Assembly: GCA_963978055.1 (NCBI GenBank)
Contig: CAXBQZ010000006.1
Coordinates: 4,204 to 68,203 of the forward strand
From: an uncultured bacterium
GTDB taxonomy: Bacteria > Actinomycetota > Actinomycetes > S36-B12 > CAIYMF01
Length of the DNA stretch: 64,000 nt
Reading direction: 5' to 3'
In this document: piece after piece, positions 15,184-33,886 of the stretch
Layout of the letters: every line of letters begins with the position of its first letter
How positions within the stretch are numbered: position 1 is the first letter of the stretch
Position numbers and translations under genes: made by a program
Notes under the pieces: model-generated
What the model was told of the DNA's origin: nothing
Databases searched by the model: none
The model's input: the letters and a program-made list of their open reading frames with translations, nothing else

Positions 15184-16737
15184 CTGAGCACCATCTCACA
15201 GGACGGAGCAGCCGAGGTCGACGTCACGTCCACCGACACTGCCCCGGCAAAGCCCAAGACTTTCGCCGAACTCGGCGTCAACCCTGCCATCGTCAAGGCT
15301 CTTGCCGAAGACGGCATTATCACCGCCTTCCCTATTCAGGAGCAGACCCTTCCACTCGCACTCGGTGGCTCTGATCTCATCGGCCAGGCGAAGACCGGTA
15401 CCGGGAAGACTCTCGGCTTCGGTATCCCCGCCCTATCACGGCTGGTGGCACCCGGAGATGACGAATGGTCACAACTGCCCGAGGCAAAGAAGGGCAAGCC
15501 ACAGGCGCTGATCATCGTGCCAACCCGCGAGTTGGCGCTGCAGGTCGCAACTGATCTGGAGAAGGCCGGACGCTACCGCGGGGTGCGTGTCCTGTGCGTC
15601 TATGGTGGTCGAGCCTATGAGCCCCAGGTCGAATCCCTCCAGCGTGGTGTCGAGGTAGTCGTCGGGACCCCCGGTCGACTGATAGATCTCGCCAAGCAGG
15701 GTCACCTGAATCTCAAGCATGTGGCAACCCTCGTCCTCGACGAGGCTGACGAGATGCTCGATATGGGCTTCCTGCCTGATGTGGAGCGCCTGGTATCGCT
15801 CGTACCGGCAGTGCGTCAGACAATGCTCTTCTCCGCCACGATGCCAGGTCAGATCGTCGCGCTGGCCCGTCGCTACATGAGTCAGCCAACCCATATCCGC
15901 GCGTCCGACCCCAATGACTCAGGATCAACGGTTGATGCGATCGAGCAGCATGTATGGCGAGCCCACAGCCTCGACAAGCAGGAACTCATCGCGCGTGTAC
16001 TCCAGGCCGAGGGACGTGGGCTCACCATCATTTTCTGTCGCACGAAGCGAAATGCACAGAAGGTCGCAGATGATCTCAACGAGCGGGGATTCGCAGCGGC
16101 TGCTGTGCACGGTGACCTCGGTCAAGGTGCGCGTGAGCAGGCACTGCGAGCTTTCCGCAACGGCAAGGTTGATGTTCTGGTCGCAACAGATGTCGCCGCC
16201 CGGGGAATCGATGTCGCCGACGTCACCCATGTCATCAACTGGGAATGTCCGGAGGACGATAAGACCTACCTGCACCGGATCGGACGTACCGGTCGGGCTG
16301 GCAGCAGCGGTGTGGCAGTCACCCTGGTGGACTGGGATGACCTTCATCGCTGGAAGATGATCAACCAGACTCTGGGTCTGCCATTCGCCGAGCCAATCGA
16401 GACGTACTCCTCCAGCCCCCATGTGTACACGGGCCTGGGAATCCCCGAGGGAACAAAGGGAAGGCTCCCAAGTTCAGCCAAGACTCGCGCGGGGCTTGAG
16501 GCCGAGGAGCTCGAAGACCTTGGTGAGACGGGCGCTGCCAAGGGTCGACGATCCAAAGGCTCCGGCAGTAGTGGATCTCGTAGTGGATCTAGTGGTGGGT
16601 CCTCGAGCGGTGGCAAGACGCGGGCCACATCTGCCTCCGCTGGCGAGTCCAAGCAACCAGAGACTGCCGCCAAGGCGCCCCGCTCGGGCAAGCCAAGACA
16701 GCGACGTCGCACCCGGAAGAGCTCCAGCACCGAGTAG
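15184..16737 (+). CDS. DEAD/DEAH-box RNA helicase (RhlE/DeaD-like), probable non-canonical start
   Basis: Q motif (TFAELG...AFPIQEQTLP) and Walker A (AKTGTGKT) lie in frame upstream of the ORF-track start 15445, followed by PTRELA, TPGR, DEAD, SAT, HRIGRTGR. No ATG/GTG/TTG lies in frame between TAG 15148 and the Q motif. Confidence 0.88.
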   Translation: MSTISQDGAAEVDVTSTDTAPAKPKTFAELGVNPAIVKALAEDGIITAFPIQEQTLPLALGGSDLIGQAKTGTGKTLGFGIPALSRLVAPGDDEWSQLPEAKKGKPQALIIVPTRELALQVATDLEKAGRYRGVRVLCVYGGRAYEPQVESLQRGVEVVVGTPGRLIDLAKQGHLNLKHVATLVLDEADEMLDMGFLPDVERLVSLVPAVRQTMLFSATMPGQIVALARRYMSQPTHIRASDPNDSGSTVDAIEQHVWRAHSLDKQELIARVLQAEGRGLTIIFCRTKRNAQKVADDLNERGFAAAAVHGDLGQGAREQALRAFRNGKVDVLVATDVAARGIDVADVTHVINWECPEDDKTYLHRIGRTGRAGSSGVAVTLVDWDDLHRWKMINQTLGLPFAEPIETYSSSPHVYTGLGIPEGTKGRLPSSAKTRAGLEAEELEDLGETGAAKGRRSKGSGSSGSRSGSSGGSSSGGKTRATSASAGESKQPETAAKAPRSGKPRQRRRTRKSSSTE

Positions 16738-16754
16738 TTCACTAGGCTGACGCC

Positions 16755-17567
16755 ATGACCGAGCCGACGCACTCCTACTTGTTCGTACCAGCGTCGACTC
16801 CAGACCGAATTCCCAAGGCGATGGCCACGGATGCACACCGGGTCATCATCGATCTCGAGGATGGGGTTGGGTTCGAGGCCAAGGAGCATGCCCGACAGGG
16901 CTTGGCCGAGGTTGTGCTCAACCAACCTGCTGTACTCAGAATCAATGCGATCGGCACTCCGTACTTCGATGACGACATCGCGGTTGCAGCACAGTTGCCT
17001 TGGGTTGAGGCGGTGATGCTCCCGAAGGTGGAGTCACCCCTTCACGTCGAGCGGATCCGCTCAGCACTGCCCGCACACATCAAGATCTTGGCGCTCGTTG
17101 AATCAGCTCTGGGTATCGTGCGCCTGGACGATATCGCCGCGGCTCGCCCAGATCGGCTCATCTTTGGAAGTGCTGACTACCTTGCCGATATCGGGGCTTC
17201 CTTCAGCAGCGAGGTGCTCAATTACCCGCGGACGAGGCTGGTGATCGCAAGTCGAGCCTTCTCACTGCCCAGTCCAGTTGATGGGCCGGCCATCGTCATG
17301 AAGGATCTCGACGCCATCCGAGCCGACTCACAGGATGCTCGCGGGCTAGGTATGGGTGCCAAGCTGTGCATCCATCCAGCCCAGGTTCCGGTGGTCAATG
17401 AAGTATTCGGCATCAGTGACGAACAGCGCCGCTGGGCTGAGGCTGTGCTGGCTGAAGCGAAGAACCACAGCGGTGCGTTCTCCTTTGAAGGTGACATGAT
17501 CGACGAACCCATCCTCAAACGTGCACGCCTGATGCTGGCGAACGCCGGCGTGCGCAGGCCGAACTGA
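16755..17567 (+). CDS. CitE/HpcH-HpaI family CoA ester lyase (citramalyl-CoA lyase-like)
   Basis: SYLFVP, IDLEDGV, LRIN, MLPKVES, VESALG, FGSADY, PVDGP, KLCIHPAQV. Confidence 0.85.
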   Translation: MTEPTHSYLFVPASTPDRIPKAMATDAHRVIIDLEDGVGFEAKEHARQGLAEVVLNQPAVLRINAIGTPYFDDDIAVAAQLPWVEAVMLPKVESPLHVERIRSALPAHIKILALVESALGIVRLDDIAAARPDRLIFGSADYLADIGASFSSEVLNYPRTRLVIASRAFSLPSPVDGPAIVMKDLDAIRADSQDARGLGMGAKLCIHPAQVPVVNEVFGISDEQRRWAEAVLAEAKNHSGAFSFEGDMIDEPILKRARLMLANAGVRRPN

Positions 17568-17589
17568 CCACTCTGCAATACAGTTCAGC

Positions 17590-18813
17590 GTGGCCACAGT
17601 TCCCGCCCCCCTTGAGGGGCTTCGCATCATCGATGTTTCGACCTATGTCGCTGGCCCCAGTGGCGCAATGACTATGGCCCAACTGGGTGCGGACGTCATA
17701 CGCGTCGACCCGATTGGTGGCGCCCCAGATGTCCGCCGACTCCCCCTGGCGCCCGGCGGCCAGAGCCTGTTCTGGGCGGGCCTGAACAAGGGCAAGAAAT
17801 CGATCGAGATCAACCTTGGATCCGATGAAGGCCGCGAACTCGTTCAGGCGCTCATTACCTCCCCTGGCCCAGACGGTGGTTTCGTCCTGACGAACTCGGT
17901 CGGGGCGAAATGGCTGGAGTACGAAGAACTTAGCAGGCTACGTGAGGACGTCATCAAGGTCTTCATCAGGGGACGCAGTGATGGCAAGGCCGCTGTCGAC
18001 TACACCATCAATGCCGAGGTCGGCATCCCCTGGCTCACGGGGCCGATCGAGAGCGGCCACCCGGTCAACCACGTGTTGCCCGCATGGGATCTGATGACGG
18101 GTGTCTACGCGGCGACCGCGGTGCTGGCAGCCGAACGGGTACGGAACCGCACGGGTCGAGGGCAGAACATCGATATCAGCCTGGCGAACGTGGCCGTGGC
18201 TACGATGGCCAATCTCGGATACACCGCCGATGTTCAGATCAATCAGAATAAGCGCGTCCGAGATGGAAACTTCCTCTATGGCGGATTCGGAATCGACTAC
18301 CAGACCGCCGACGATGTGCGCATCATGGTCGTGGCGCTCACGCCGCGACACTGGCGCAGTCTGATCGAACTGACGGGTGTTGCTGACGCAGTGGACCGAC
18401 TGCAGGAATCACTGGGCGTGAACTTCAGCATCGATGCCGACAGGTATACCCACCGACATGAACTGAACGATCTCATCCGCCCATGGTTCCAGGCACGCAG
18501 TGGTTCAGAGGCAATCACGGCCTTGGAGAAGGCCGGAGTGCTGTGGGGTCGCTACCGGACAGTGAGCGAGCTGGTCACCCAGCCTGACTCCCTGTTGCAC
18601 ACCAGCAGCCTGCTACATGAGATCGATCAGCCCGGCGTGGGCACCTACGCAGTACCCGGTCCTGTACTCGAGTTCTCCGGGTGGACAGCTGGTGAACCGA
18701 AGCCGGCCCCAATCCTCGGTGAGCACACCGATCAAATCCTCGGAACCATCCTGGGCCTGGCTGATCACGAACTTGTCGACCTGCGTCAACGAGGGGTTAT
18801 CGGCGGAGCCTGA
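17590..18813 (+). CDS. mct: Family III CoA transferase, mesaconyl-CoA C1-C4 transferase (2-methylfumaryl-CoA isomerase)-like
   Basis: Beyond the CaiB/BaiF fold it carries Mct-type segments: MAQLGADVIRVDPIGG, SLFWAGLNKGKKS, GRSDGKAAVDYTIN, PVNHVLPAWD, GNFLYGGFG, WGRYRTV, QPGVGTY, APILGEHTDQIL. Recognised from recall of Chloroflexus Mct. Confidence 0.75.
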   Translation: MATVPAPLEGLRIIDVSTYVAGPSGAMTMAQLGADVIRVDPIGGAPDVRRLPLAPGGQSLFWAGLNKGKKSIEINLGSDEGRELVQALITSPGPDGGFVLTNSVGAKWLEYEELSRLREDVIKVFIRGRSDGKAAVDYTINAEVGIPWLTGPIESGHPVNHVLPAWDLMTGVYAATAVLAAERVRNRTGRGQNIDISLANVAVATMANLGYTADVQINQNKRVRDGNFLYGGFGIDYQTADDVRIMVVALTPRHWRSLIELTGVADAVDRLQESLGVNFSIDADRYTHRHELNDLIRPWFQARSGSEAITALEKAGVLWGRYRTVSELVTQPDSLLHTSSLLHEIDQPGVGTYAVPGPVLEFSGWTAGEPKPAPILGEHTDQILGTILGLADHELVDLRQRGVIGGA

Positions 18814-19598
18814 CCACCTTGACTGGCATCGGAGGCAGCCGAGCCAAGACCGAGCAACTGACGCGCATGTTCGCGGTAGATCTCCGAGCCACGCAGATGT
18901 GGAGCCGTTGACAGCACCGTGCGACCGATGGCCGGGGCCTCTGCAAACCGCACCGAGCGCGGAATCGGTGGCTCGAGTACCGGCATCTGGTAGCGGACAC
19001 CAATATCGCTCAGCACTGCCTGCGCGTGCGTTGTGCGTCCGTCAAACATGGTGGGCAGAAAGCCGAGGACCACTAGATCAGGATTGGAGACCTGCTGGAC
19101 TTCCGTGACGGTCTCAATCACCTGACCGACACCTCGGTGCGCCAATGTCTCGCACTGCAGGGGTACCAATACCTCATGTGCGGCCGTGAGAGCGTTGACC
19201 GTGAGAATCCCAAGGGTGGGCGGGCAGTCGAGCAGCACGAGGTCGTAGTCGTCATCGATCAGCGCGAGGGCTCGCTGCAGGGTGAACACAGCATTGGATC
19301 GACCGACCAGCATCGCCTCGGACTGGGCCAGATCGATGGTGCTGGGGAGCAGATGTACACCCTCATCGGTGGAGATGATCACGGACCGAGCGGAAGCCTG
19401 CCCGGTGATGACCTCATGCACTGAACTGTCCAGATGCTCTGGGTCGATTCCGAGAGAGAAGGTCAGACAGGCCTGTGGGTCCAGATCCACCAGCAACACA
19501 CGTTGACCCAACTCTGCAAGCGCCACGCCGAGCGATGCAACAGTCGTGGTCTTGCCCACGCCACCCTTTTGGCTGGCAACGGCAATGCGACGTGCCAC
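18786..19598 (-). CDS. ParA/Soj-family ATPase (orphan, Rv3213c-like)
   Basis: QKGGVGKTT, VDLDPQ, LDCPP, PLQCE, PTMFDGRT, IPRSVRFAEAP; GGAGG RBS. Confidence 0.9.
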   Translation of the reverse strand: MARRIAVASQKGGVGKTTTVASLGVALAELGQRVLLVDLDPQACLTFSLGIDPEHLDSSVHEVITGQASARSVIISTDEGVHLLPSTIDLAQSEAMLVGRSNAVFTLQRALALIDDDYDLVLLDCPPTLGILTVNALTAAHEVLVPLQCETLAHRGVGQVIETVTEVQQVSNPDLVVLGFLPTMFDGRTTHAQAVLSDIGVRYQMPVLEPPIPRSVRFAEAPAIGRTVLSTAPHLRGSEIYREHARQLLGLGSAASDASQGGQAPPITPR

Positions 19599-19693
19599 TG
19601 GACCTCCTTCGCTGCCGGTGCAACCTCTGGTCCCACTCTAGGCAATCGCGCTGCCATGTGCAGCAACGCATCAGATGACCGTACGATGCCCCT

Positions 19694-20557
19694 GTGAGCA
19701 CACCGCCATCAGTCACATTCCCCGATTCAGTTCAACGAGTCACCTTCACCACTCGACGTGCCTCGCTGGCTGGTGTTCGGATCGATGCCGATGAGCCGCA
19801 CGGAACCGTTGTTCTGGTACCTGGATTCACTGGTTCCAAAGAGGACTTCATCGAGCTCTTCGTCCTGTTGTCGAACCTCGGTTGGACGGTTGTGTCCTAT
19901 GACCAGCTGGGCCAGCATGAGTCCGCGGGTCCTGATGATGAGAGTGCCTACACGCTGGATCTCTTCGCTCAGGACCTGCTCGATATCGTCAGCCAGTTGC
20001 CCTCAGGGCCAGTTCATCTTGTCGGCCACTCCTTCGGGGGACTGGTCAGCCGACATGCTGCCCTCATTGACCAAGGCGAACTCCTCACCTCCCTGACCCT
20101 GTTCTGCACCGGGCCGGGGCCGATCAATGTCGATCGACATGAGAATCTCAATGCGCTCGTGGGCGCTCTTCCGCACACCCCGCTGCCCATCATCTACGAG
20201 ATCATGGAAGCTGCAGACCGGGCGAGCGGCTGGGAGCCGCCAAGCCAGGAGGTTGCTGATCTTCTGCGCTCAAGATTCCTGAGCAACTCCCCACATGGTC
20301 TGCGCAGCAAGGCCTCCATCCTGCTGACGAATACCGACCGAACGGACGAACTCGCGGAGTTGGCCACATCCGGCTTTCCTGTGTTCGTTGTCTACGGTGA
20401 GGACGATGACGCCTGGCCCACCGATGAGCAGGATGCAGTGGCCGCCGCGGTTGGCCAAGCGGCCGTGGTGGTATCAGATGCCGCGCACTCCCCGAACGTT
20501 GAGAACCCTGAAACAACGGCTCAGGTGTGGAACGCACTATTTCGCTCAGTGCCGTGA
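19694..20557 (+). CDS. Alpha/beta-fold hydrolase
   Basis: LVPGFTGSKEDF, DQLGQHES, GHSFGG, GEDDDAW, AAHSPNVE. Confidence 0.9.
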   Translation: MSTPPSVTFPDSVQRVTFTTRRASLAGVRIDADEPHGTVVLVPGFTGSKEDFIELFVLLSNLGWTVVSYDQLGQHESAGPDDESAYTLDLFAQDLLDIVSQLPSGPVHLVGHSFGGLVSRHAALIDQGELLTSLTLFCTGPGPINVDRHENLNALVGALPHTPLPIIYEIMEAADRASGWEPPSQEVADLLRSRFLSNSPHGLRSKASILLTNTDRTDELAELATSGFPVFVVYGEDDDAWPTDEQDAVAAAVGQAAVVVSDAAHSPNVENPETTAQVWNALFRSVP

Positions 20558-25653: not shown

Positions 25654-26853
25654 TCAGGAGCGCTTGTAGTCCTCGAGCAGTCGGCGACCGATAATCATGC
25701 GCTGGATGTCTGCGGTTCCCTCGCCGATCATGAGCATCGGGGCCTCCCTGTAGAGACGCTCGATCTCGTACTCCTTGGCGTAGCCATAGCCTCCGTGGAT
25801 GCGGAAGGAATCCTCCACTACCTGAGTGCAGTACTCACTGGCCAGGTACTTGGCCATTCCCGCCTCGAGGTCGTTGCGCTCACCGGCGTCCTTCTTCCGG
25901 GCAGCACGGACCATCATCTGGTGCGCAGCCTCCACCTTGACCGCCATATCCGCCAGGCGGAACTGGACTGCCTGGTGATCAGCGATCTTCTTGCCGAAGG
26001 TCTCACGCTGCTGGGCGTAATCGATTCCCAGTTCGAACGCACGTAGAGCAACACCACAGGCGCGAGCGGCCACATTGACCCGGCCCACTTCGACCCCGTC
26101 CATCATCTGGTAGAAACCCCGACCAGGTGTTCCGCCCAGAATTCTGTTCTCGGGGATTCGCAGGCCATCCATGACCAGTTCGGTGGTGTCGACGCCCTTG
26201 TAGCCCATCTTCTCGATCTTGCCGGGCACTGTGAGCCCAGGCCGGACCTCACCAAAACCGGAGGGCTTTTCAACCAGGAAGGTGGTCATCTTCTTGTAGA
26301 CGCTCGACTCCGGATCAGACTCATCATCGGTGCGCACCAGCACCGCCACAAGATTCGATGAACCCCCGTTCGTAAGCCACATCTTCTGGCCTGTCAGAAC
26401 GAACTCATCGCCATCCCTGACCGCTTTTGACCGGATGGCCGCAACATCGGAACCACAGTGCGGTTCAGACATTGAGAAGGCACCGCGCACCTCACCAGCA
26501 GCCATCTGCGGAAGGAAGTACTCCTTCTGCTCATCCGTACCGTGGTGCATGAGCATGTAGGCGACGATGAAGTGAGTGTTGACGATTCCACTGACGCTCA
26601 TCCAGCCGCGAGCAATCTCTTCAATCGCGAGCGCGTAGGTGAGCAGGGACTCGCCAAGGCCGCCGTACTCTTCGGGAATCATGAGTCCGAACACACCCAT
26701 CGCCTTGAGTTGCTCGACGATCTCAGTCGGATAGATATCACCGTGCTCGAGCTCTTGAGCGTTGGGGATGATCTCCTTCTCAACAAACTCATGGACGGCA
26801 GCAAGGATCTCCCGCTGGAGTTCGGTCAAGCCCTCAGTCTGAGCCAGGCCCAT
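25654..26853 (-). CDS. Acyl-CoA dehydrogenase (resembles the methylsuccinyl-CoA dehydrogenase of the Streptomyces ccr-meaA cluster)
   Basis: PEEYGGLG, FSMSEP..GSD, GQKMWLTNG, QETFGKKI, IHGGYGY, EGTADIQR; N-terminus LAQTEGLT and adjacency to an Mcl-like lyase match that cluster from recall. Confidence 0.85.
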   Translation of the reverse strand: MGLAQTEGLTELQREILAAVHEFVEKEIIPNAQELEHGDIYPTEIVEQLKAMGVFGLMIPEEYGGLGESLLTYALAIEEIARGWMSVSGIVNTHFIVAYMLMHHGTDEQKEYFLPQMAAGEVRGAFSMSEPHCGSDVAAIRSKAVRDGDEFVLTGQKMWLTNGGSSNLVAVLVRTDDESDPESSVYKKMTTFLVEKPSGFGEVRPGLTVPGKIEKMGYKGVDTTELVMDGLRIPENRILGGTPGRGFYQMMDGVEVGRVNVAARACGVALRAFELGIDYAQQRETFGKKIADHQAVQFRLADMAVKVEAAHQMMVRAARKKDAGERNDLEAGMAKYLASEYCTQVVEDSFRIHGGYGYAKEYEIERLYREAPMLMIGEGTADIQRMIIGRRLLEDYKRS

Positions 26854-26918: not shown

Positions 26919-27887
26919 CTAGGCCTCGGGCGGTTCGAAGGACTGGGTGCGCTGCATGCCCGCGGCACGACCCTTCGAGCTGATCACCAGAGCCATCTTG
27001 CGACTGGCCTCATCGATCATCTCGTCCCCCAACATCACTGCACCTCGGGCTCCTCCGTCAGCTGACGTGTAGTACTCGTATGCATCGAGGATCAGTTCCG
27101 CGTGATCGTAGTCCTCCTGCCGCGGTGAGAAGATCTCGTTGGCAATGGGAACCTGATCCGGATGTAGCACCCACTTACCGTCAAAGCCAAGGGCAGCCGA
27201 CCGCGCGGCCACTCGTCGATAGCCGTCAGGATCCCGCACCTGCAGATACGGGCCGTCAATCGCGGCCTTGTTGTTTGCACGCGCAGCCATGAGGATCCTC
27301 ATCAGTATGTAGTGGTAGGCGTCACCCTCGGTGTAGCCGGGAGGCTGCTCGCCGACGATGAGTGACTTCATGTTGATACTCGCCATGAAATCCGCAGGGC
27401 CGAAGATGATGGTTTCGATTCGTGGTGATGCAGCCGCAATGTCGTTGACGTTGTTGAGCCCGGCAGCATTCTCGATCTGCGCCTCGATCCCGATTCGTCC
27501 CACGGGCAGACCCATCGTCCGCTCGATCTGTGTCAGAACAAGATCCAGTGCCTCAACGTGACCAGCGTTCTGAACCTTGGGAAGCATGATGCAGTCGAGG
27601 TTGTGGCCCGCGTTCTCAACAACCTCCACCACATCTCGGTACGTCCACGATGTTGTCCAGTCGTTCACTCGAACGGTGCGGATCTTGTTTCCGTAACCGC
27701 CCTCATTCAGCGCCGCCACGATGTTCTTGCGAGCATCGGCCTTCGCCAACGGGGCAACTGAGTCTTCAAGGTCGAGGAAGACCTGATCGGCGGCCAGCCC
27801 CTTGGCCTTCTCAAGCATCTTCGGGTTACTTCCCGGAACTGCGAGATTAGATCGTCGGGAACGCCATTCACGTACCGCATCAGCCAT
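26919..27887 (-). CDS. CitE-family CoA ester lyase, malyl-CoA/beta-methylmalyl-CoA lyase (Mcl)-like
   Basis: RSNLAVPGSN, FLDLEDSVAP, RVNDWTT.WTYRDV, CIMLPKV, GIEAQIE, FGPADFMAS, IDGPY, GFDGKWVLHP, EMIDEASRKMA. Confidence 0.85.
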   Translation of the reverse strand: MADAVREWRSRRSNLAVPGSNPKMLEKAKGLAADQVFLDLEDSVAPLAKADARKNIVAALNEGGYGNKIRTVRVNDWTTSWTYRDVVEVVENAGHNLDCIMLPKVQNAGHVEALDLVLTQIERTMGLPVGRIGIEAQIENAAGLNNVNDIAAASPRIETIIFGPADFMASINMKSLIVGEQPPGYTEGDAYHYILMRILMAARANNKAAIDGPYLQVRDPDGYRRVAARSAALGFDGKWVLHPDQVPIANEIFSPRQEDYDHAELILDAYEYYTSADGGARGAVMLGDEMIDEASRKMALVISSKGRAAGMQRTQSFEPPEA

Positions 27888-28997: not shown

Positions 28998-30263
28998 ATG
29001 AGCGGAGCGCCAACCCGGGTATTTGTTGCGCGCCTTGCCGGTATTGCTGCCTTCGACCCGCGCGGAGACCAAGTCGGCCGGGTGCGTGATGTTGTTGTCA
29101 CCCTTCGACACGGGTCAAATCCTCCGCGGGTTCTGGGTCTGGTGATCGAGGTGCAGCCTCGTCGACGTATCTTCTGTCCGATGACTCGCGTAACGAGCAT
29201 CGATTCAGGGGCCGTCGTGACGACAGGGCTGCTCAACATCCGTCGATTTGAGCAGCGCAGTGGTGAGACGCTCGTCATGAGTGAGCTCCTCGACCGTCGG
29301 GTCACCCTCTTGGAGACAGACGAGGTCGTCACGGTTCAGGATGTCGCCATCATGCAGGAGCGCTCCCGTGACTGGGTGGTCTCGCGAATCTTCGTCAAGA
29401 AGCCCGGTAAGGGCCTTCGACGTCGCGGTGAGACGCTGACCGTGGAATGGAATGCGGTGTCCGGGCTCTCCCTTCATGATCCACAGCAGGGGGTCGACAG
29501 CCTGTTGGCTACCGTCGAGAAGCTGCGCCCTGCCGACCTGGCCAACGTGATCCACGAACTCACGCCCAAGCGTCGACAGGAGCTTGCGGCAGCACTCGAT
29601 GACGAGAAGCTCGCAGATGTTCTCGAAGAGTTGCCCGAGGACGATCGGATCGAGATTCTTGCCTCCCTCGATGGTGAGCGAGCCGCAGACGTTCTCGAGG
29701 AGATGGACCCGGACGACGCCGCAGACCTGCTGTCCGAGCTTCCCCCCGAGGAGGCGGAGGCGCTGCTATCTCTGGTGGAACCTGAGGAAGCAGAGGATCT
29801 GCGTCGACTTCTGCGCTATGACGACTACACCGCCGGCGGAATGATGACGCCGGAGCCGGTGATTCTGCCACCAGACTCCACGGTGGCCGATGCGCTGGCA
29901 CGAGTGCGCGATGCAGACCTTCCACCGGCACTCGCGGCACAGGTTTACGTCGTGCGTCCACCGTTCGAGACGCCCACCGGACGGTACCTCGGCGTCGCCC
30001 ACTTCCAGCGACTTCTTCGCGAGCCACCATCCACGCTCGTGTCTGCAGTGCTCGACGATTCACTCGAACCGATTGGGCCAGACGCTCCACTCGGCCAGGT
30101 CACCCGCTACTTCGCCACCTACAACCTGGTGGCCCTTCCGGTGGTGGATGAGGACGATCACCTGCTCGGCGCTGTCACCGTTGACGATGTGATCGACCAC
30201 ATGCTTCCGGAGAACTGGCGCGATGCCGACACCGCCGACCTCGTAGACGACGAGGAGGTGTGA
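28998..30263 (+). CDS. MgtE N-terminal/CBS domain protein with N-terminal PRC barrels (no membrane domain)
   Basis: FDPRGDQVGRVRD, LRPADLA, EEMDPDDAADLL repeats, TAGGMMTPE, YNLVALPVVD. Confidence 0.88.
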   Translation: MSGAPTRVFVARLAGIAAFDPRGDQVGRVRDVVVTLRHGSNPPRVLGLVIEVQPRRRIFCPMTRVTSIDSGAVVTTGLLNIRRFEQRSGETLVMSELLDRRVTLLETDEVVTVQDVAIMQERSRDWVVSRIFVKKPGKGLRRRGETLTVEWNAVSGLSLHDPQQGVDSLLATVEKLRPADLANVIHELTPKRRQELAAALDDEKLADVLEELPEDDRIEILASLDGERAADVLEEMDPDDAADLLSELPPEEAEALLSLVEPEEAEDLRRLLRYDDYTAGGMMTPEPVILPPDSTVADALARVRDADLPPALAAQVYVVRPPFETPTGRYLGVAHFQRLLREPPSTLVSAVLDDSLEPIGPDAPLGQVTRYFATYNLVALPVVDEDDHLLGAVTVDDVIDHMLPENWRDADTADLVDDEEV

Positions 30264-30264
30264 C

Positions 30265-30816
30265 ATGGCACGTGATAACACCCGTGGGCCACGACTGGAC
30301 CAACCGATGGAGCGCGGCCTGTCGCTGCGTCCCTCCGTCGATCAGGAGGCAGTAGGCCGACTGTCGGAGAGAATCGCACGGTTCCTCGGTTCATGGCGAT
30401 TCATCGGGTACATGACAGCGTTCGTATTGTTCTGGGTGCTCTGGAACACCATCGGTCCCAAGGGGCTTCGCTTTGATGAGTGGCCGTTCATCGGCCTGAC
30501 TCTTCTCCTGTCGCTTCAGGCGTCCTATGCCGCACCCCTGATCCTGTTGGCACAGAATCGTCAGTCCGACCGTGATCGCATTCAGTATCAGGACGATCGC
30601 TCCAATACTGAACGCCTCATTGCTGATACCGAGTACCTGATGCGCGAGATTGCCTCCTTGCGCATGGCATTGGGTGAGGTTGCCACGCGCGACTACCTCC
30701 GCGGTGAACTTCGCGACATCCTCGATGAGATCGATGAGCGTGAGCAGAAGCGCAAGAAGAAGAAGGACCGGCAGTCCGAGGGAAGTCCCGATCCCGCCGA
30801 TGAGCCATCGGTCTGA
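30265..30816 (+). CDS. DUF1003 domain protein
   Basis: RIARFLGSWRF, FDEWPFIGLTLLLSLQASYAAPLILLAQNRQ. Confidence 0.9.
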   Translation: MARDNTRGPRLDQPMERGLSLRPSVDQEAVGRLSERIARFLGSWRFIGYMTAFVLFWVLWNTIGPKGLRFDEWPFIGLTLLLSLQASYAAPLILLAQNRQSDRDRIQYQDDRSNTERLIADTEYLMREIASLRMALGEVATRDYLRGELRDILDEIDEREQKRKKKKDRQSEGSPDPADEPSV

Positions 30817-30835
30817 TTTCGCGTAGCATCGGGTT

Positions 30836-31972
30836 ATGTCCGAATCGATACTCGACCTCGTCGATGCTGCCCTCGCCACTGTCGAGGACCCCGAAATCCA
30901 CCGGCCGATCACCGAATTGGGCATGGTCAAGTCGCGTGAGGTCGTTGACGGCATTGCCCGCATCGCGGTCTATCTGACCATCTCCGGCTGCCCCATGCGC
31001 GAGACCATCACGAATCGTGTGACGGCCGCTGTTGCCGCGGTTCCGGGGATCAGCGCCGTTGAGGTCGAACTCGATGTGATGAATGAGGAGCAGCGCAAGG
31101 CGATGCGCGCCTCCCTCGTCGGACATGATGAGCGGGAAATCGTGTTCACGAAGCCTGGCAATCTCACCCGGGTGTACGCGATCGCATCCGGGAAAGGTGG
31201 AGTGGGTAAGTCATCGGTAACCGCGAACCTGGCCGCAGCCATGGCAGCCCAGGGTCTGAGCGTTGGAATCGTTGATGCCGACATCTACGGCCACTCGATT
31301 CCACGCATCATCGGTGCCACCGATGCTCCGACGATGGTCGAAGGAATGATCATGCCGCCGCAGGCGCACGGGGTGCGCGTGATCTCGATGCTGCCATTCA
31401 AGCCAGGTGGAGTGTCACAGCCGGTCGCATTCCGCGGCCCAATGCTTCATCGAGCCCTTCAGCAGTTCCTCGCCGACGTCTGGTGGGGTGATCTCGATGT
31501 ACTTCTCCTGGACCTCCCACCCGGCACCGGCGATGTCGCAATCTCCGTCGCACAGCTGCTGCCAAACGCGGAACTGGTGATTGTCACGACTCCCCAGACT
31601 GCCGCAGCCGAGGTCGCGATTCGCGCGGGCATGCTGGCCCAGCAGACCAATCAGCGCATTGCCGGGGTTATCGAGAATATGAGCGCCTTCCCCTGCCCAC
31701 ATTGTGGTGAGCCGATGGATCTCTTCGGCTCTGGTGGTGGTGCGATGGTTGCGCAGACCCTTACCAGCGAGTTGGGCAATGACGTGGCAGTCCTGGCCAA
31801 CATTCCCTTCGATGTTCGCCTTCGCGAGGGGGGAGACAATGGTGAACCGCTCGTCTTGAGCGATCCGAACTCTCCGGCCGCAACGGTGATCCGCGAACTG
31901 GCAACCAAACTGGGGCAGCGAGCCCGCGGGCTTGCCGGAATGTCCCTGGGCCTGACTCCCGCCGGACGGTAA
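30836..31972 (+). CDS. mrp: Mrp/NBP35 Fe-S cluster carrier ATPase
   Basis: N-terminal DUF59 (DPEIHRPITELGMV, GCP), SGKGGVGKS, DADIYG, DLPPGTGD, CPHC. Confidence 0.92.
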   Translation: MSESILDLVDAALATVEDPEIHRPITELGMVKSREVVDGIARIAVYLTISGCPMRETITNRVTAAVAAVPGISAVEVELDVMNEEQRKAMRASLVGHDEREIVFTKPGNLTRVYAIASGKGGVGKSSVTANLAAAMAAQGLSVGIVDADIYGHSIPRIIGATDAPTMVEGMIMPPQAHGVRVISMLPFKPGGVSQPVAFRGPMLHRALQQFLADVWWGDLDVLLLDLPPGTGDVAISVAQLLPNAELVIVTTPQTAAAEVAIRAGMLAQQTNQRIAGVIENMSAFPCPHCGEPMDLFGSGGGAMVAQTLTSELGNDVAVLANIPFDVRLREGGDNGEPLVLSDPNSPAATVIRELATKLGQRARGLAGMSLGLTPAGR

Positions 31973-31984
31973 TACGTCCCGCGA

Positions 31985-32320
31985 CTACGTGGCGTCGGTA
32001 TCGAAGACAGCCGAGCCGTTTGCGGAGCCGTTGACTCGCGGCTTGGGGGTGGACTCCGGCTCCGGATCACTCAAGATCGATGAGGCTAGCCGACGTGGGT
32101 GCAGTTCAGCCAGATCCTTCATCGACTGCTTGATCTCACTGGTGAAATTGGGGTCAAGATCAGCGGCGGCCGCAATATCGCGACGGGCACTTGCTGCCTG
32201 ATCCCGCAGCACTCTGACCCATCGGGTGAGATCTGCGATCGCCTTCGGCAGTCGATCCGGCCCCAGGATGATGACAGCCACAACCGCGATGACGAGAAAC
32301 TCGCCCATCCCTACGTCCAC
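31985..32320 (-). CDS. tatB: Sec-independent translocase subunit TatB-like
   Basis: MDVGMGEFLVIAVVAVIILGPDRLPKA; usual position downstream of htrA. Confidence 0.8.
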   Translation of the reverse strand: MDVGMGEFLVIAVVAVIILGPDRLPKAIADLTRWVRVLRDQAASARRDIAAAADLDPNFTSEIKQSMKDLAELHPRRLASSILSDPEPESTPKPRVNGSANGSAVFDTDAT

Positions 32321-32431
32321 GACTGCACCTCCCTTGGTTGAGAACCGAACGGACTAAGACTACGCGCCCACCATCATTTTCTCCCACCCGCGTGATCCAG
32401 TTGGGTCACGCGGACGTCCAATCGGAACAGA

Positions 32432-33886
32432 TCAGCCGGTGCTCGAGTCCGACCCAAGAGTAAGCGGCACATCCTTGGTGCCGGAACCACTCGTGACCGT
32501 CAAGGTAACGGTGTCACCGGGTGTGTGTGCGCGAACGGCGACAATCATTTCGGTCGCATTCGCCACAACCTTGCCATCCACCTTGGTGATGACATCGCCC
32601 GGCTTGAGACCAGCTGCCGCCGCCGGTCCGTTGGCGGTCAGCTGGCTGATCTGAGCTCCGGCACCGGTGAAGTTCATGTCGACGGAAACTCCGATGATCG
32701 GGTGAGTCGCATGACCTGTCGCGATGATCTCCTCGGCAACGCGCTTGGCCTGGTTCACCGGAATGGCAAAGCCAAGGCCGATCGAGCCGGTCTGACCACC
32801 AGACTGATTCTGGCCCAGGGAGGCGATCGCCGAGTTCACTCCAATGACCTTGCCCTGCGCATCGACAAGTGGACCACCCGAGTTACCAGGATTGATGGCG
32901 GCATCCGTCTGGATGGCGCTGATGTATGACGACTCACCACTGCCACCGGCAGTCACCGGTCGATTCAGAGCGGAGATGATGCCGGAGGTGACCGTTCCCT
33001 CCAGACCCAGAGGTGATCCAATCGCGATGGTGGTATCACCCACCACGATGCCGGACGAGTTCCCCAGCGTGGCCGTCTTCAGCCCGGTGGCATCGACTTT
33101 GATAACCGCAAGGTCATAGGAGAGATCTCGACCCACGACCGTTGCAGGCTTGGTGGTGCCATCCTGGAACGTGACGGTCAGGGTGCCCTGCCCGTCAGCG
33201 GCGCCTGCAATCACGTGGTTGTTGGTGAGAATGTACCCGTCCTGACGGATGACAAATCCGGAGCCGGTGCCACCACCTTGCGAGTCCCGCTCCTCGATCT
33301 GGACCACAGTCGGTAGGACGGCCGCGGCAACCGATGCAATCGATCCACTTGGCCGCGCCGACAGGTCAGCGTTGGTCTGTGGCAGCACACTGCTGCCCGC
33401 CACCGTGCTCGAGGCGCCTCGATGATCGGCAATCGCGTAGGCACCCACTCCACCAATAGCGCCTGCCAGAAGACCAGATGCCATAGCCAGAGCTACAAGC
33501 TTCCCAGCACCGGTGCGCTGTGGAGCAGAATCCTGCGCGAGATGGCTTGGAGTTGATTCACCGACACCGATCCGTCCCGGGTAGGCACCCTCGGCCGGCA
33601 TCGACTCGTAGCCCGGATACCAGGCTGACGGGGGCGAGGTCGGCGGCACCGTCGGAGCCTGCTGAGTGGACTCGTCAAATGGCGGCTCGTAGCTGACGGG
33701 CGAGCTGACAGGTGAACTTACCGGAGCTGGTGGTCCAACCACCCGTGCAGACGGATCGGGGGCAGCGAGGTGACCCGCGGGTCGGTAGCTCTCATCAGAC
33801 ATGGCTTCTCCCTGTGGCTGATCTGGCTGCGAGCCGTGGCCCGCAGCCGGGGTTCCATCTGGATATGAAGTCATGATGTGCTCCAT
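32432..33886 (-). CDS. htrA: HtrA-family (S1C) membrane serine protease with PDZ domain
   Basis: Pro-rich N-terminus, one TM, LTNNHV, DLAVIK, QTDAAINPGNSGGPL, PDZ (GPAAAAGLKPGDVI). Confidence 0.92.
   Translation of the reverse strand: MEHIMTSYPDGTPAAGHGSQPDQPQGEAMSDESYRPAGHLAAPDPSARVVGPPAPVSSPVSSPVSYEPPFDESTQQAPTVPPTSPPSAWYPGYESMPAEGAYPGRIGVGESTPSHLAQDSAPQRTGAGKLVALAMASGLLAGAIGGVGAYAIADHRGASSTVAGSSVLPQTNADLSARPSGSIASVAAAVLPTVVQIEERDSQGGGTGSGFVIRQDGYILTNNHVIAGAADGQGTLTVTFQDGTTKPATVVGRDLSYDLAVIKVDATGLKTATLGNSSGIVVGDTTIAIGSPLGLEGTVTSGIISALNRPVTAGGSGESSYISAIQTDAAINPGNSGGPLVDAQGKVIGVNSAIASLGQNQSGGQTGSIGLGFAIPVNQAKRVAEEIIATGHATHPIIGVSVDMNFTGAGAQISQLTANGPAAAAGLKPGDVITKVDGKVVANATEMIVAVRAHTPGDTVTLTVTSGSGTKDVPLTLGSDSSTG

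Follow-up and report, generated by a model that had tools for sequence, protein, structure and literature searches.

To our knowledge, Mct (2-methylfumaryl-CoA isomerase, EC 5.4.1.3) is the only well-studied intramolecular coenzyme A (CoA) transferase, and it has been characterized solely from Chloroflexi. Here we analyzed an Mct-like family III CoA-transferase that is encoded next to a CitE-family acyl-CoA lyase in a 64,000-nt stretch of DNA from an uncultured actinobacterium (GenBank assembly GCA_963978055.1, contig CAXBQZ010000006.1, positions 4,204 to 68,203 of the forward strand; hereafter, the window). In Mct, Asp165 is the catalytic residue, Arg47 and Tyr136 bind the free carboxylate of the substrate, and R75, F101 and R104 clamp the adenosine of CoA and ‘cork’ the tunnel, at the mouth of which L43 is located (PMC9813914). 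The cork was proposed to seal the active site and thereby to enforce intramolecular transfer (PMC9813914). Mct has also been used in the methylsuccinate module of the engineered, ‘new-to-nature’ THETA cycle, which combines Ccr-Ecm/Epi, the Ict-Pa CoA-transferase and Mct-Meh-Ccl (bioRxiv 10.64898/2026.01.16.699985). An earlier note on the window had proposed that the lyase-transferase pair channels mesaconyl-CoA to pyruvate and acetyl-CoA. We found that the pair is a horizontally acquired, selectively maintained operon, a version with one gene fewer of the three-gene CitE-Mct-Meh cassette of other Actinomycetota. The route from mesaconyl-C1-CoA to mesaconyl-C4-CoA, then to (S)-citramalyl-CoA and in the end to pyruvate and acetyl-CoA is the reading that we favor, although we hold it only tentatively and would stop just short of calling it probable.

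The pair lies on the forward strand as two co-directional open reading frames (ORFs), which we recovered between a DEAD helicase gene and a parA gene at exactly the coordinates first given for this two-gene unit. The upstream gene (16755-17567) encodes a lyase of 270 aa with an HpcH_HpaI domain (PF03328; E 3.8e-28, 98.7 bits), and the downstream gene (17590-18813) encodes a transferase of 407 aa with a CoA_transf_3 domain (PF02515; E 2.5e-61), whose residues 8-380 cover profile positions 1-366 with 208.3 bits against a family cut-off of 23.3. An exact-sequence cluster look-up returned no names for the cassette proteins. For the lyase, the best curated model was RipC_Ccl (NF038242), of which profile positions 1-268 were fully covered, with a score of 160.8 bits versus an equivalog cut-off of 375. 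Among solved structures, the lyase matched best the Pseudomonas aeruginosa citramalyl-CoA lyase PaCcl (8khl, 146 bits), followed by Mycobacterium tuberculosis (Mtb) CitE Rv2498c (6aq4, 136 bits) and Yersinia RipC (3qll, 133 bits), whereas malyl-CoA lyase structures scored 87 bits or less. In the PDB comparison, proven citramalyl-CoA lyases are thus nearer to the window lyase than are malyl-CoA lyases or citrate lyase beta subunits, in agreement with the (S)-citramalyl-CoA-type lyase envisaged in the earlier note. The Glu and Asp of its ESA and FGxxD motifs are in place, with E116 and D141 aligned to the same residues of PaCcl; these two residues would be metal ligands, as described for Mtb CitE. 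The two other CitE paralogues of the genome show the reverse preference, for Mcl: one, at 26919-27887, scores 229 bits to the Mcl structure 5ugr, and the other, on contig C21 (C-numbers denote contigs of this genome), precedes malate-CoA ligase genes. Since both are Mcl-like, the cassette lyase is the only Ccl-like lyase of the genome.

The transferase resembles Mct along its whole length. Its best model was TIGR04253 (Mct) at 408.7 bits, the next NCBIfam family scored 119 bits, and the succinyl-CoA:mesaconate CoA-transferase model scored 116 bits. Likewise, the Mct structures from Chloroflexus (8apq) and Roseiflexus (7xkg) were matched at E 1e-115 with ~50% identity and 389 bits, and the next PDB match, SUGCT, at 140 bits. 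Residues 8-406 align with 26-425 of 8apq end-to-end with a single 1-residue indel, from which we infer that the transferase shares the Mct architecture and is devoid of the flexible Gly-rich loop of Frc-type enzymes. Judged by these scores, no intermolecular family III enzyme comes anywhere near as close to the transferase as Mct does. The active-site residues point in the same direction (Mct residue numbering was checked on the 8apq sequence): D167, R50 and Y138 of the transferase correspond to D165, R47 and Y136 of Mct, and this trio is invariant in all 83 Mct-like sequences compared. The equivalents of R47 and Y136 are missing from the other family III transferase of the genome, which is located on C42 (8075-11017) and flanked by genes identified by eye as a GntR regulator on one side and a second acyl-CoA dehydrogenase on the other. 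This second transferase was considered as an activator of mesaconate and rejected, its best model being succinate-glutarate CoA-transferase in the company of the GntR regulator and the dehydrogenase; the C42 unit probably serves glutarate catabolism and is unrelated to the pair.

The best family model and the best solved structures thus agreed with the assignment to Mct made in the earlier note, and the phylogeny did not. A search with an E-value limit of 1e-20 recovered at least 5,885 relatives, comprising all clades described below and more distant family III members, and a maximum-likelihood tree was built from 94 sequences. Since the outgroup branch was very long, only unrooted splits were considered. 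Clade C (50 sequences, 100% support) contains the Chloroflexi Mct together with many sequences from Solirubrobacterales and Proteobacteria, clade B consists of filamentous actinomycetes, and the window transferase belongs to a separate clade A (17 sequences, 100% support in the SH-like approximate likelihood-ratio test, SH-aLRT). Three observations weigh against an Mct function of the window enzyme. First, its score is below the equivalog cut-off of TIGR04253 (408.7 vs 725 bits). Second, it falls outside the clade of characterized Mct: a tree in which the window group is constrained to join the Chloroflexi Mct is worse by 206 log-likelihood units and is rejected by the approximately unbiased (AU) test (p-AU 1e-9), the grouping having been picked post hoc from the finished tree. 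Third, G77, S103, A106 and P46 stand in place of R75, F101, R104 and L43. These replacements are not a peculiarity of the window: the cork residues and L43 are replaced throughout clade A, in which none of the three cork residues occurs, and F101 is restricted to clade C. Meanwhile, a single Mct-like gene was present in 13 of 15 genomes checked, whatever the clade, and this one-copy pattern is weakly consistent with isofunctional clades.

The genomic context of the relatives revealed where the pair comes from. The nearest relatives of the transferase (71-73% identity) lie in loci with the gene order CitE-Mct-hydratase (L112; L-numbers denote related loci) or CitE-PPDK-Mct-hydratase (L110 and L111), and more distant clade A members form Mct-hydratase pairs (L028, L031 and L113). 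The cassette hydratase carries the JGI family name 3-methylfumaryl-CoA hydratase (Meh), and its best PDB match is the P. aeruginosa itaconyl-CoA hydratase PaIch (8khg, E 1e-45). With the CitE proteins of L110 and L112 the window CitE shares 55-56% identity, as against at most 37% with any other Mct-linked CitE; therefore, the lyase and the transferase were inherited as a unit, and the window pair is the cassette without its third gene. These CitE-Mct-Meh cassettes lend support to a linked lyase-transferase pathway as suggested before. Clade C loci, including one from Chloroflexaceae, are commonly arranged as (PPDK)-CitE-Mch-Mct with an Mcl-like CitE and an Mch of ~347 aa, which is the mcl-mch-mct arrangement of Chloroflexus. 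Genes for pyruvate phosphate dikinase, PPDK, were seen inside or beside CitE/Mct cassettes of both clades A and C (L110/L111 5105-7840, L072 and L078), which hints that pyruvate from the lyase is passed on to phosphoenolpyruvate. Elsewhere in clade A, a sub-branch (L026, L027, L032, L034 and L035) combines a Glyoxalase_4 gene, the Mct-like gene and an unannotated protein of 255-261 aa, among genes for P450, SDR, SnoaL, enoyl-CoA hydratase and ADP-forming acyl-CoA synthetase, a context that suggests a different dicarboxylyl-CoA substrate. The 255-261-aa neighbor in L026 and L027 was considered as a Meh and rejected, being unrelated to Meh or to any gene of the window's genome. Genes in these high-GC relatives were called from the excess of GC content at third codon positions (GC3) over that at second positions (GC2), a procedure validated on the window; longest-ORF calling was rejected because it chose antisense frames.

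The same cassettes, with the missing cork, give rise to the main rival of the favored reading, in which the transferase is an intermolecular enzyme acting on free itaconate, mesaconate or citramalate. In its elaborated form, the transferase would use succinyl-CoA or acetyl-CoA to activate free itaconate or mesaconate, and the pair, with a core MaoC hydratase and the CitE lyase, would carry out an Ict-Ich-Ccl-type degradation or detoxification of C5-dicarboxylates. The triad of lyase, transferase and PaIch-like hydratase fits an intermolecular transferase equally well, which adds to the points against an Mct function. Indeed, the composition of the ancestral triad is that of the Pseudomonas itaconate cluster, with the lyase nearest to PaCcl (8khl) and the cassette hydratase nearest to PaIch (8khg), and such a triad could stand by itself only if its transferase were intermolecular. 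The lack of the cork residues across clade A also speaks for this rival, and family III enzymes can be itaconate CoA-transferases, e.g. Rv3272 and PA0882 (PMC11789021). However, the ~50% identity and colinearity with Mct and the absence of the Gly-rich loop region (PMC9813914) speak against it, as do the far lower scores to known intermolecular transferases, e.g. the 116 bits to the succinyl-CoA:mesaconate CoA-transferase. Moreover, the clade A locus L028 has an acyl-CoA ligase directly after Mct-Meh, which would be redundant beside an intermolecular transferase, and the genome has a plausible source of mesaconyl-C1-CoA (see below). On balance we consider an intermolecular enzyme unlikely, although it deserves serious attention.

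To follow the history of the insertion, we compared 41 genomes of the order, 25 of the genus and 16 from other families. The transferase gene was present in four of the 25 genus genomes, namely G000, the source genome of the window, and G002, G012 and G018, with 84-85% identity, and it was absent from all 16 genomes of the other families. All four carriers share the order TetR-DUF3107-MiaE_2-DEAD-CitE-Mct-ParA-hydrolase. The block TetR-DUF3107-MiaE_2-DEAD-ParA-hydrolase was syntenic in all 13 further genomes whose loci were examined, which belong to the genus or to different families within the order; three of these are G002, G012 and G018, and in the 10 remaining loci (genus and four further families) DEAD and ParA stood without CitE-Mct between them. 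The earlier note had described the pair as a cassette inserted into a core block, and this description holds: DEAD and ParA adjoin in every other genome examined, and the pair is between them in the carriers only. The convergent DEAD-ParA spacer was measured in six loci without the pair and was empty, at 66-124 bp, in three. Small unrelated inserts of 316-1060 bp were seen in this spacer in L016 (G008), L021 (G027) and L022 (G033), and the spacer looks like a variable spot in which accessory genes land recurrently. As a side observation, the gene caller gave DEAD helicase ORFs of 404-695 aa in the related genomes, longer than that of the window, which would agree with a helicase start upstream of the GTG at 15445. 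The four carriers are mutually closest on every core gene compared; therefore, a single gain in their common ancestor is the simplest history. The GC3 of the pair (0.69-0.71) showed no compositional trace of recent transfer relative to the flanks (0.62-0.70).

Both genes of the pair are under strong purifying selection. Across the four carriers, the ratio of nonsynonymous to synonymous substitution rates (dN/dS) was 0.04-0.08 for CitE and 0.03-0.06 for the transferase at saturated dS, and these ratios match those of the flanking core genes. A functionless remnant of the cassette, left behind after the loss of the hydratase, would account for the missing third gene of the ancestral cassette. 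Nevertheless, none of the four species has a broken frame in either gene, the transferase retains its catalytic residues, and dN/dS values of 0.03-0.08 at saturated dS, as in core neighbors, exclude decay, so that we give this explanation next to no credence.

The absence of Meh leaves a gap in the favored route and counts as a further point against it. The earlier note had reported no Meh in the window, which we confirmed, and had left room for one elsewhere in the genome; here, a hydratase of the Meh type (COG3777/PaIch-like) gave no match at E<=1e-3 in any of the four carriers, G000, G002, G012 and G018, whose genomes are 90-98% complete. Likewise, a double-domain Mch (~350 aa) was not found in the genome. 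Three MaoC-domain genes are present in G000, a HadA/HadB-like pair on C38 and a gene for a 175-aa protein on C52. The C38 pair was rejected as a substitute hydratase because it is of the fatty-acid-synthesis type. The C52 protein is a single-domain homologue of Mch, and the Mch proteins encoded in the related loci have no other match in the genome; among family models it fits RipB_Ich best (157 bits against a cut-off of 340), and its best structures are Chloroflexus Mch (4e3e) and beta-methylmalyl-CoA dehydratase (8hgn). Hydratases of these kinds are not strict about their substrates: Haloarcula Mch converts mesaconyl-C4-CoA to (S)-citramalyl-CoA with an efficiency 3.5-fold below that for the C1 ester (PMC5592240), Ich enzymes serve as mesaconyl-C4-CoA hydratases (PMC12290011), and the small MaoC protein Rv2499c of Mtb has Ich activity (PMC11789021). 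Given this documented relaxed specificity of Mch and Ich hydratases, it is plausible that the Mch/RipB-like C52 MaoC substitutes for Meh, and since this core gene may fill the step, the pathway idea stays alive. The hydration step would then rest on a predicted promiscuous activity of C52, which must be counted against the favored route. The C52 gene is core, being present in 37 of the 41 genomes, and for this reason no link was drawn from a co-occurrence test of the hydratase with the cassette.

The loss of Meh could also be explained if no hydratase were needed. In this scheme, the transferase would turn free citramalate or malate directly into (S)-citramalyl-CoA or malyl-CoA and the lyase would cleave the product, a sequence for which a transferase and a lyase are chemically enough. 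R50 and Y138 would bind the free carboxylate of hydroxy-dicarboxylates as well, and the maintenance of the two genes under purifying selection in four species without Meh would be accounted for. However, Meh is retained in the nearest relatives that share this residue pattern, which makes an enoyl-CoA the likelier substrate of the family; the four carriers already have an mcl-mtkAB module for malate; and no characterized Mct-like member is known to use a hydroxy acid. We therefore regard a hydratase-free pair as distinctly improbable.

The favored route depends on a supply of mesaconyl-C1-CoA, for which we found a plausible source in the host. The genome encodes a crotonyl-CoA carboxylase/reductase (Ccr) at 603 bits versus the equivalog cut-off of 378.55, and Ccr is above this cut-off in 36 of the 41 genomes, i.e. 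core. The ccr gene lies in an ethylmalonyl-CoA neighborhood (C3:16934-31103) containing hbd, a MeaA-like mutase gene, a double 3-hydroxyacyl-CoA dehydrogenase gene, ccr, a thiolase gene and meaB, in which ccr and the mutase were assigned with family models and the other names were taken from translations. The mutase is a single-chain B12 enzyme of 660 aa that scores below the methylmalonyl-CoA mutase cut-off and is MeaA-like. Within the window, on the reverse strand, the Mcl-type L-malyl-CoA/beta-methylmalyl-CoA lyase gene mentioned above (26919-27887; 4l9y, 204 bits) is core, occurring in 39 of the 41 genomes with 74-93% identity. It adjoins an acyl-CoA dehydrogenase gene (25654-26853, reverse strand), whose product is a candidate methylsuccinyl-CoA dehydrogenase (Mcd): it is the best match of the genome to the catalytic domain of the Paracoccus enzyme PdMCD (41% identity, 267 bits; next 143) and scores 301 bits to PDB 6es9. 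The signature of PdMCD comprises an N-terminal extension, R252, R376 and R421, and A285 and F287 (PMC5798300). Of these features only R421 is kept in the candidate, which lacks the N-terminal extension, R252, A285, F287 and R376, another observation unfavorable to the proposed route; the protein may be an actinobacterial Mcd variant. Altogether, these genes can yield mesaconyl-C1-CoA, and it is very likely that an ethylmalonyl-CoA pathway with this ester as an intermediate operates in the host. In addition, contig C21 carries a module (29390-32463, L127) of an Mcl-like CitE lyase (313 aa), a malate-CoA ligase beta subunit (697 bits against a cut-off of 604) and, next in line, a gene of 304 aa that was read by eye as the malate-CoA ligase alpha subunit. 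The Mcl-like paralogue of this module is confined to the four CitE-Mct carriers; therefore, the sublineage gained two modules for CoA esters of C4/C5-dicarboxylates.

In the favored reading, the ethylmalonyl-CoA pathway, with Ccr, the MeaA-like mutase and the candidate Mcd, would supply mesaconyl-C1-CoA, and the Mct-like enzyme would shift CoA from C1 to C4 of mesaconate, with Asp167 as the catalytic residue and Arg50 and Tyr138 holding the free carboxylate. The Mch/RipB-like MaoC from C52, acting instead of Meh, would then hydrate mesaconyl-C4-CoA to (S)-citramalyl-CoA, which the CitE-type lyase would split into pyruvate and acetyl-CoA. The pair would in this way add a second exit to the pathway, alongside the Mch/Mcl route to glyoxylate and propionyl-CoA. 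What the enzymes act on, that CoA moves within one molecule, that the C52 hydratase stands in for Meh and which way the flux runs are all inferred in this scheme. Of the original proposal of mesaconyl-CoA channelling, the lyase type, the ancestry of the cassette and the host pathway have found support, while the position of the transferase outside the Mct clade and the absence of Meh, both of which the earlier note had itself named as refuting outcomes, speak against it. As for the direction, all steps are reversible in principle, and core Mch-like and Mcl-like genes are present for a flux resembling a citramalate cycle, from pyruvate and acetyl-CoA through citramalyl-CoA, mesaconyl-C4-CoA, mesaconyl-C1-CoA and then beta-methylmalyl-CoA to glyoxylate and propionyl-CoA; the mcl-mtkAB module gained by the sublineage could turn such glyoxylate, with acetyl-CoA, into malate. 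Yet the PPDK genes in or beside related cassettes (L110, L111, L072 and L078) suggest pyruvate as a product, and glyoxylate is already made via the ethylmalonyl-CoA pathway, so that we think the reverse flux highly improbable.

The boundaries of the insert were also examined. The stop codon of the DEAD helicase gene is at 16737, leaving a 17-nt gap to the citE start codon at 16755, and a -10-like hexamer TAGGCT lies at 16743-16748 on the forward strand, 6 nt upstream of the ATG. This hexamer, which the earlier note had read as a leaderless-type -10 element of the unit, is indeed present, and TAGGCT or TACGCT is retained 6-8 nt before the citE ATG in all four carriers, although synonymous sites of the coding regions are saturated. 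A scan for the sigma-70 consensus detected no promoter, and no terminator was found, in 16400-19800. It is plausible that the citE-transferase pair has its own promoter, to which the hexamer would contribute a leaderless-type -10, and the short gap behind the helicase stop also allows read-through transcription. At the downstream edge of the insert, the ORFs of the transferase gene and parA converge and overlap at their 3’ ends by 28 nt (18786-18813), and in G012, G002 and G018 a distance of 53-62 nt separates the end of the transferase match from the parA match. This edge leaves no space for a third, hydratase gene.

The wider interest of the pair lies in clade A, a large, uncharacterised, mostly actinobacterial sister clade of true Mct that is routinely auto-annotated as Mct. 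Its members occur in tight linkage with hydratases of the Meh/Ich kind and with Ccl-type lyases, and they have none of the residues proposed to enforce intramolecular transfer; the function of clade A therefore bears either on the cork-up model or on the mis-annotation of many proteins. A more specific and more speculative idea is that the host harbors a natural hybrid in which the ethylmalonyl-CoA pathway is joined to the lower half of the 3-hydroxypropionate bi-cycle: Ccr, Ecm and an atypical Mcd would deliver mesaconyl-C1-CoA to an enzyme of the cork-less Mct clade, a single-domain hydratase of the Mch type with two functions would take the place of Meh, and a Ccl-type lyase would yield pyruvate and acetyl-CoA. 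We consider this full combination possible, though doubtful; a full-text literature search found no paper on a natural ethylmalonyl-CoA/Mct hybrid. If the hybrid is real, its net reaction would be the conversion of acetyl-CoA and CO2 to pyruvate, a natural counterpart of the THETA-cycle module, and intramolecular CoA transfer would be possible without the cork residues. Freshwater actinobacteria would then naturally run the ethylmalonyl-CoA-to-pyruvate shunt that was built synthetically as ‘new-to-nature’.

Compared with known systems, the locus combines features of several. With the haloarchaeal methylaspartate cycle it would share mesaconyl-CoA chemistry, and the haloarchaeal Mch also hydrates mesaconyl-C4-CoA (PMC5592240); the haloarchaeal succinyl-CoA:mesaconate CoA-transferase differs in being intermolecular, C1-specific and distant (116 bits). 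The Mtb pair Rv2498c (CitE) and Rv2499c (MaoC) likewise joins an actinobacterial citramalyl-CoA lyase, at 136 bits to the window lyase, with a small Ich-active MaoC hydratase (PMC11789021). In Mtb, however, the two genes are adjacent, whereas lyase and hydratase are unlinked here, and the Mtb transferase is ScoAB or Rv3272 and not Mct-like. The Ict-Ich-Ccl systems of Pseudomonas aeruginosa and Cupriavidus provide the best relative of the lyase (PaCcl, 8KHL), a homologue of the ancestral hydratase (PaIch/Meh) and the same end products, pyruvate and acetyl-CoA (PMC12290011). They differ in that the transferase here is Mct-like and not an orthologue of any proven itaconate-activating transferase, and that this genome has no PaIch-type hydratase and no adjacent methylsuccinate isomerase or C4-specific dehydrogenase. 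In function, the pair would correspond to the Mct-Meh-Mcl segment of the Chloroflexus 3-hydroxypropionate bi-cycle. With Mct of this bi-cycle, the transferase shares the family III fold, ~50% identity and the Asp with its Arg/Tyr clamp, and next to the genes of its nearest relatives are those for a hydratase of the Meh family and a lyase of the CitE superfamily. Unlike the bi-cycle enzyme, it belongs to a separate clade, scores below the cut-off and has R75, F101, R104 and L43 replaced; the lyase is of the Ccl type instead of the trifunctional Mcl; neither Meh nor a double-domain Mch is encoded in the genome; and the host does not belong to the Chloroflexi but is an actinobacterium that has an ethylmalonyl-CoA pathway. 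Finally, the combination predicted here differs from the THETA module in having been brought together by gene transfer into a natural host and in lacking Meh, and resembles it in that candidates for Ccr, Ecm, Mct, a hydratase and Ccl are all encoded in this genome.

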